From NCBI RefSeq assembly GCF_003334305.1, contig NZ_QOWS01000005.1: DNA of 64,000 nt. One strand, written 5' to 3'. Positions 47,420-48,157 of this stretch are shown here, in pieces (position 1 is the first letter of the stretch; each line of letters starts with the position of its first letter). Source of the DNA: Escherichia coli. GTDB lineage: Bacteria; Pseudomonadota; Gammaproteobacteria; Enterobacterales; Enterobacteriaceae. The notes beneath the pieces were generated by a model. The model did no database searches. It worked only from the letters and a program-made list of their open reading frames with translations, and had not been told where the DNA came from. A program made the translations under genes and the position numbers.

Positions 47420-47460
47420 ACGCACAGAATGTGATGTCAGCACTCTGTGCGTCTGCTTTT
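47420..47460 (+). terminator. Hairpin terminator after eamA
   Basis: Inverted repeat acgcacaga/tctgtgcgt followed by ctgctttt. Confidence 0.5.
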
Positions 47461-48157
47461 ATCGCGGGAAAAAGTACTTTACCTGGAACTCGAAAATATT
47501 GCTGTAAAGTAACGAATAATCCAGCGGAATAGAGTTACTGTCCACAGCCTGGGTCTGAATTTTAAGTATGGGATCCCGTGGGCTGATCCGTAAAATACTG
47601 GCGATTTCTGGGGTAGGAAAAGTAGGGGAGAAAGTTTCAAAGGTGCCAATGATTTTGATCCCGCATTCATTCTCAATATATGAAAATTTGGATTTTTGCA
47701 TATGTGACACGGTTAAATCAGGAAAACGTGCTACTGACATCCACCTTTCTTCTAATTGTGCTGCATTATCCTCAATGAATCGCAGTCTCTTTATGTAATA
47801 AACCTGCTCACCAGTCACTAAATTCAGCTCAGTCGCAATAGTGGGTGAAGCATCCTGCACTTCAAATTTCATAATCTGACTCCCTGCCTCTTTGCCGCTT
47901 TAATGCGCAATTTCACTGAAACTGTTCATGTGATCAATGTGTGCAACAAAATTCTTTTTTTGAATGTATGTTCCTGAACCATGCTTTCTGTGAATAATTC
48001 CTTCGCCTTCCAGCAAGGATAATGCCTTACGCAGGGTATTACGCGAAACATTATAACGAACAGCGAGTTCCGCTTCTGACGGCAACAAATCACCAACATG
48101 CCATGAATTGCCATTGATTTCGGATTTAAGTAAGCGGGCAATCTTTTGAAAAATCAC
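47459..48157 (-). pseudogene. HutC/GntR-family regulator interrupted by one in-frame TAA (HTH part 47900..48157, UTRA part 47459..47872)
   Basis: The two minus-strand ORFs share one frame; the HTH ORF stop TAA at 47900..47902 and 9 sense codons separate them; full frame is 232 codons. Confidence 0.75.

Follow-up and report, generated by a model that had tools for sequence, protein, structure and literature searches.

A clone-specific nonsense codon in bgcR, the regulator gene of the accessory bgc beta-glucoside operon of Escherichia coli

The DNA analysed here, called the window throughout, is a stretch of 64,000 nucleotides from Escherichia coli (assembly GCF_003334305.1, contig NZ_QOWS01000005.1). 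It includes a 6.3-kb segment, with eamA on one side and marB on the other, in which a disrupted regulator gene, bgcR, is divergent to the five intact structural genes of a beta-glucoside/cellobiose PTS operon, bgc. The features of this segment, each with the means by which it was recognized, are the following.

47459..48157, minus strand: bgcR, pseudogene of a GntR/HutC-family regulator, 232 codons with one internal stop (translation, RefSeq, Pfam)
47900..48157, minus strand: N-terminal open reading frame of 85 aa, with a complete winged-helix DNA-binding domain (translation, ORF list, Pfam)
47900..47902, minus strand: premature ochre codon TAA at codon 86, with AAA (Lys) in intact alleles (translation, allele comparison, exact 61-mer)
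47744..47746, minus strand: T138R (ACG to AGG), a second clone-specific change, downstream of the stop (allele comparison)
47459..47872, minus strand: C-terminal open reading frame of 137 aa, starting at Met96, UTRA domain minus its first nine residues (ORF list, Pfam)
48158..48355, no strand assigned: divergent bgcR/bgcE control region, 198 bp (alignment, palindrome search, promoter scan)
48356..48667, plus strand: bgcE, PTS subunit IIB, intact (ORF list, RefSeq, Pfam)
48782..50104, plus strand: bgcF, PTS subunit IIC, intact (ORF list, RefSeq, Pfam)
50132..50443, plus strand: bgcI, PTS subunit IIA, intact (ORF list, RefSeq, Pfam)
50499..52172, plus strand: bgcH, LamB-type carbohydrate porin, intact (ORF list, RefSeq, Pfam)
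52197..53636, plus strand: bgcA, 6-phospho-beta-glucosidase (GH1), intact (ORF list, RefSeq, Pfam)

The Pfam domains of the structural genes (PTS_IIB, PTS_EIIC, PTS_IIA, LamB, and Glyco_hydro_1) agree with the products given in RefSeq. The bgc segment was found in about 2,501 of the 5,426 complete E. coli genomes (~46%), nearly all of them with an intact regulator, and it is absent from K-12-type genomes, which align with the window only up to the end of eamA. Between phylogroups B1 and B2, pN/pS is 0.087 for the five structural genes and 0.058 for the flanking core genes, and the synonymous divergence is 0.089 in the bgc genes and 0.089 in the flanks. These values argue that the locus is old, was inherited together with its surroundings, and is normally under purifying selection; the segment looks like an old resident that is missing from about half of the E. 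coli genomes, not like a recent insert. Its G+C content (47420-53690) is 42.6%, compared with ~48% in both flanks.

An operon composed of bgcE, bgcF, bgcI, bgcH, and bgcA together with a divergent bgcR was described by Neelakanta, Sankar and Schnetz (2009, Appl Environ Microbiol 75:2284), as summarised in PMC3585215, in which BgcR is given as a positive regulator with reference to the same study. Among the cryptic beta-glucoside systems of E. coli, bgc has been counted as the fourth (PMC4488073), and c1955-c1960 of strain CFT073, six genes reported to form a cellobiose PTS cluster, are found in E110019 too (PMC2831201). Our comparison places the bgc locus of the window in E110019. The window has the expected gene content and order, that is, a divergent GntR regulator, IIB, IIC, IIA, a porin, and a phospho-beta-glucosidase, and its locus is taken to be the published bgc operon, matched to the published locus by gene content and order and not by sequence. 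Both have the same parts list, are accessory, and are absent from K-12; the difference is that the regulator here contains a nonsense codon, with a wild-type control region.

Translation of the minus strand at 47459..48157 confirmed the view of the initial annotation that this is one 232-codon frame with a single in-frame TAA at 47900..47902. The N-terminal part begins with a GTG start at 48157 and runs for 85 sense codons (VIFQ...SFSEIAH), the first base of the stop codon is represented on the plus strand by the A at 47902, and between the stop and the ATG at 47870..47872 there are nine sense codons (SGKEAGSQI). The annotation had also recognized a HutC-type regulator with GntR and UTRA halves, and Pfam analysis of the repaired protein agreed, placing GntR (PF00392) at residues 4-65 (E = 3e-19) and UTRA (PF07702) at residues 87-218 (E = 7e-30). 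The stop coincides exactly with the boundary between these two domains. The best solved relatives were NagR/YvoA, YydK, and DasR, with NagR aligned to residues 2-209 (E = 4e-22). The UTRA domain serves in the HutC/GntR family as the module for effector binding and dimerisation. A member of the HutC family carries an N-terminal GntR winged helix-turn-helix domain (wHTH) and a UTRA domain within the same polypeptide; the former is present in the window, and the latter is split from it by the TAA at codon 86. The bgcR of the window is a HutC-family pseudogene and not an intact member of the family.

A GGAG motif precedes the Met96 ATG by 7 nt, and this ATG lies 27 nt past the stop, so that translational restart at Met96 behind a putative Shine-Dalgarno sequence is plausible. 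The resulting product would lack the DNA-binding domain as well as the first nine residues of UTRA (87-95). Readthrough or recoding of the UAA was considered and rejected, no mechanism being known by which UAA is read as sense in E. coli in the absence of an ochre suppressor.

The intact allele WP_000577184.1, present in O104:H4, ATCC 11775, E110019, and NCTC9088, has AAA (Lys86) at the position of the stop, which bears out the earlier expectation that a single base change would repair the gene. Compared with the O104:H4 allele, the bgcR of the window contains only two base differences, A256T (AAA Lys86 to TAA) and C413G (T138R). Lys86 and Thr138 are found in all 12 sampled full-length bgcR variants, and T138R in none of them. 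A comparison of the bgcR of the window, which is B1-like, with that of the B2 type strain shows 16 differences, 14 of them synonymous; the two nonsynonymous ones are K86* and T138R, both specific to the clone. Judging from this pattern, intact bgcR is under strong purifying selection. An alignment of orthologous regulators at the stop codon had been suggested in the initial annotation, and it gives AAA (Lys) in every intact E. coli allele examined; a sense codon at this position, together with purifying selection in the orthologues, is what is expected of a nonsense pseudogene.

Other disruptions of bgcR are found in public data, including a frameshift near codon 119 that yields 127-aa and 93-aa products (139 contigs carry the 93-aa one), a stop at codon 82, directly behind codon 81, and a truncated form of 224 aa. 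The gene has thus been lost repeatedly, though rarely, and these independent disruptions fit the recurrent decay of a dispensable regulator.

The distribution of the stop was followed with an exact 61-mer centred on the TAA. Among the 5,426 complete E. coli genomes, nine contain this sequence, i.e., H15, A7, A28, TUM1887, DETEC-E601, 41, TUM12355, WL164, and FCI51, and a further 1,764 match it with one to three mismatches, B2-type alleles not being reached by so short a query. A two-ORF arrangement as the conserved state of the gene was rejected, since the stop occurs in only 9 of ~2,500 locus-bearing complete genomes, and the initial annotation was right in treating the split as a derived condition. 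The nine TAA genomes also rank first to ninth when matched to the 24 kb surrounding the locus, with an identity of at least 99.98%, and the next best match, at 99.7%, has AAA. This gap indicates that the stop arose once, in one clone. The window itself and strain A7 (NZ_CP028767.1) show 100% identity in both stretches of 24-25 kb that were compared. In every clone member examined, RefSeq lists a pseudo 'GntR family transcriptional regulator' with an internal stop.

The exact 85-aa product occurs on 723 public contigs and the exact 137-aa product on 686. Contigs were retrieved with the 85-aa fragment, and one locus is given here, the other 23 being near-identical; this metagenome contig carries both fragment ORFs and differs from the window by 1 base in 20 kb. 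The isolation sources of the clone include humans (China and Colombia), meat from chickens, beef from Brazil, an orangutan, an echidna, and a sink. The disruption truly belongs to the organism's own DNA, as it is found in nine independent complete genomes and on ~700 contigs, and the stop is genuine, neither a chance feature nor an assembly error. A sequencing or assembly error at a locus that is intact in the strain has next to no probability: the nine complete genomes with the identical stop were obtained in different laboratories and from different hosts and countries, the ~700 contigs include a metagenome assembly, and no support for an error at the bgcR TAA was found in these data.

In the alignment, the control region at 48158-48355 is identical to that of three B1 strains with intact bgcR (O104:H4, E110019, and NCTC9088). 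Hence no compensating promoter change was found in the TAA clone relative to these strains, and no cis-acting compensation is present in the clone. Reportedly, the bgc promoter is CRP-dependent, and the operon is said to be activated not through loss of BgcR but by a single promoter base change that frees the promoter from the need for BgcR; once activated, it reportedly supports growth on cellobiose, arbutin, or salicin at low temperature. At 48272-48287 there is a candidate class II CRP site, TGTGATCAATGTACCA, which precedes by about 41.5 bp the transcription start that would be implied by a candidate -10 element, TATGAT (48309-48314). A 14-bp near-perfect palindrome, CTGTTATATACCAG, is found at 48331-48344, 12-25 nt ahead of the start codon of bgcE. 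It is conserved in the B1 as in the B2 alleles and might serve as an operator or belong to the 5' UTR.

These observations are best explained if bgcR became a nonsense pseudogene recently and in a single lineage, with bgcEFIHA expected to be non-inducible in the clone, and we regard this explanation as likely. A single A-to-T change (AAA to TAA, Lys86) occurred one time only, in the common ancestor of a clone that is phylogroup B1-like and is now found on several continents. By removing UTRA, the stop would prevent full-length BgcR from being made, and the loss of this domain suggests that the gene has lost its function. With BgcR reported as an activator of the CRP-dependent bgc promoter, bgcEFIHA would not be inducible in the clone; this state could be overridden by a mutation of the promoter-up type, and none is present. 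The initial annotation had envisaged a dead repressor and a constitutively expressed operon. Since BgcR is reported as a positive regulator in PMC3585215, its loss should keep the operon off and not render it constitutive, and the earlier prediction is probably reversed. The sign of BgcR control is taken here from this secondary citation. The consequence of losing BgcR is not to be guessed from family membership, and the family default of 'repressor' would point the wrong way.

In related systems, asc is activated through disruption of ascG, and chb through changes in chbR/nagC. The analogy with bgl, asc, and chb, by which the initial annotation had supported activation of the operon, holds only as far as bgc is likewise a cryptic system, the shared feature being a silent accessory beta-glucoside system in E. 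coli with a mutation-dependent phenotype (PMC4488073). It fails for the route, which in asc and chb needs a mutated repressor or a gain-of-function regulator, whereas a nonsense codon in the gene of a positive regulator is expected to have the reverse effect. Activation of the ascG type supposes that the mutated regulator represses its operon, and BgcR, according to the secondary source PMC3585215, is a positive regulator.

The HutC family supplies an argument on the other side. NagR/YvoA of B. subtilis, DasR of Streptomyces, GmuR, and BguR share with BgcR the GntR wHTH and the C-terminal UTRA domain, and bgcR is likewise divergent to a PTS/glycosidase operon. GmuR and BguR are HutC-type regulators for cellobiose or mannobiose PTS operons, and all four proteins are repressors that are released by sugar phosphates. 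BgcR differs from them in being reported as an activator (PMC3585215) and, in the window, in being truncated at the domain boundary. Loss of a positive regulator has to be weighed against the fact that most characterised regulators of this family are repressors. It has also to be weighed against the presence of five intact structural genes in the window although the clone is widespread, and against an excess of substitutions in the operon (8 versus 3) that pure silence does not obviously predict.

This excess comes from a SNP comparison in which seven clone members were aligned across the 24 kb surrounding the locus and 23.6 kb of shared downstream core sequence. The background was taken from the 50 kb downstream, as positions 1-36000 of the window were unsuitable, H15 having there a Qin-like prophage in ydfJ. 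Among 28 independent SNP events, 8 fall in bgcF, bgcH, and bgcA (window 48782-53636), which account for 10.6% of the compared length, so that 3.0 were expected (binomial P 0.007, or 0.008 without the error-prone A28 assembly; a post hoc comparison). Seven of the eight are nonsynonymous, namely L150V, P360S, and S89F in bgcF, V249G, S512R, and A242V in bgcH, and S31N in bgcA, and these occur at different sites in different strains. Within the clone, the ratio of nonsynonymous to synonymous events in bgc (7:1) did not differ from that of the background (18:9; Fisher P=0.39). This modest excess is no more than suggestive; a silenced operon under relaxed constraint would fit it, and so would an expressed one under selection.

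If BgcR were a repressor like most HutC proteins, the nonsense mutation would derepress bgcEFIHA, and the operon would be expressed constitutively in the clone. The closest solved homologues, NagR/YvoA, DasR, and PhnF, are all named repressors, and the ~3-fold substitution excess in the permease, porin, and glucosidase genes, with its preponderance of nonsynonymous changes, could reflect selection blunting a costly constitutive expression. We nevertheless consider derepression unlikely: the excess was recognized post hoc on eight events, its nonsynonymous share does not differ from that of the background, and a similar SNP density is seen in the neighbouring lsr operon. Somewhat less probable still is that the split gene remains functional, the lone 85-aa wHTH binding the operator, or being complemented in trans by the re-initiated 137-aa UTRA fragment, so that regulation would be altered or blind to the effector. 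The complete GntR domain ahead of the stop, the GGAG-preceded ATG only a short distance beyond it, and the crystallisation of the isolated NagR DNA-binding domain (78 residues, PDB 4u0y) speak for such a possibility. HutC regulators, however, dimerise through UTRA, so that a lone wHTH should bind weakly, and the restart product would begin within UTRA, without residues 87-95. Moreover, T138R, missing from all sampled full-length alleles, accumulated downstream of the stop, and other lineages disrupt bgcR at different positions, as simple loss predicts. A further version, in which loss of bgcR is adaptive or changes function in this globally spread clone, with the remnant wHTH, alone or together with a re-initiated UTRA fragment, rewiring bgc expression and the permease and porin genes evolving faster under selection, at which the 8-versus-3 excess of mostly nonsynonymous substitutions in bgcF, bgcH, and bgcA hints, seems to us just as improbable as a functional split gene.

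With loss of a positive regulator as the preferred explanation, the clone (A7, H15, TUM1887, WL164, and others) is predicted to be locked in a Bgc-negative state, and the T-for-A change might be used to recognize it in a simple way. The finding has little significance beyond annotation, as a routine clone-specific pseudogene in an operon already described; the pseudogene is already marked in RefSeq and the operon already published, and the case is an ordinary and known one.

Several further differences were observed around the locus. The lsrACDBFGK genes (about 7-16 kb past the right end of the window) contain 10 within-clone events, of which 7 are nonsynonymous; four of these were contributed by the assembly of A28, in which several frameshift pseudogenes occur and which seems to be error-prone. 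Outside the window, gadB of DETEC-E601 shows seven clustered substitutions within 770 bp in this single strain, which would most simply be explained as a gadA/gadB gene conversion tract. In the window, ydfJ (about 35357-36648) is intact, with the core genes ynfE/F, pntB, clcB, and ynfM upstream, and the same is true of A7, TUM12355, WL164, and A28. The gene is truncated in H15, 41, FCI51, and DETEC-E601, with a Qin-like lambdoid prophage seen as the cause only in H15; the clone is therefore polymorphic for this prophage. Both ydeJ and ydeI are intact in the window (about 42361-43547), and only small remnants of the two genes are present in ATCC 11775, the type strain of E. coli.
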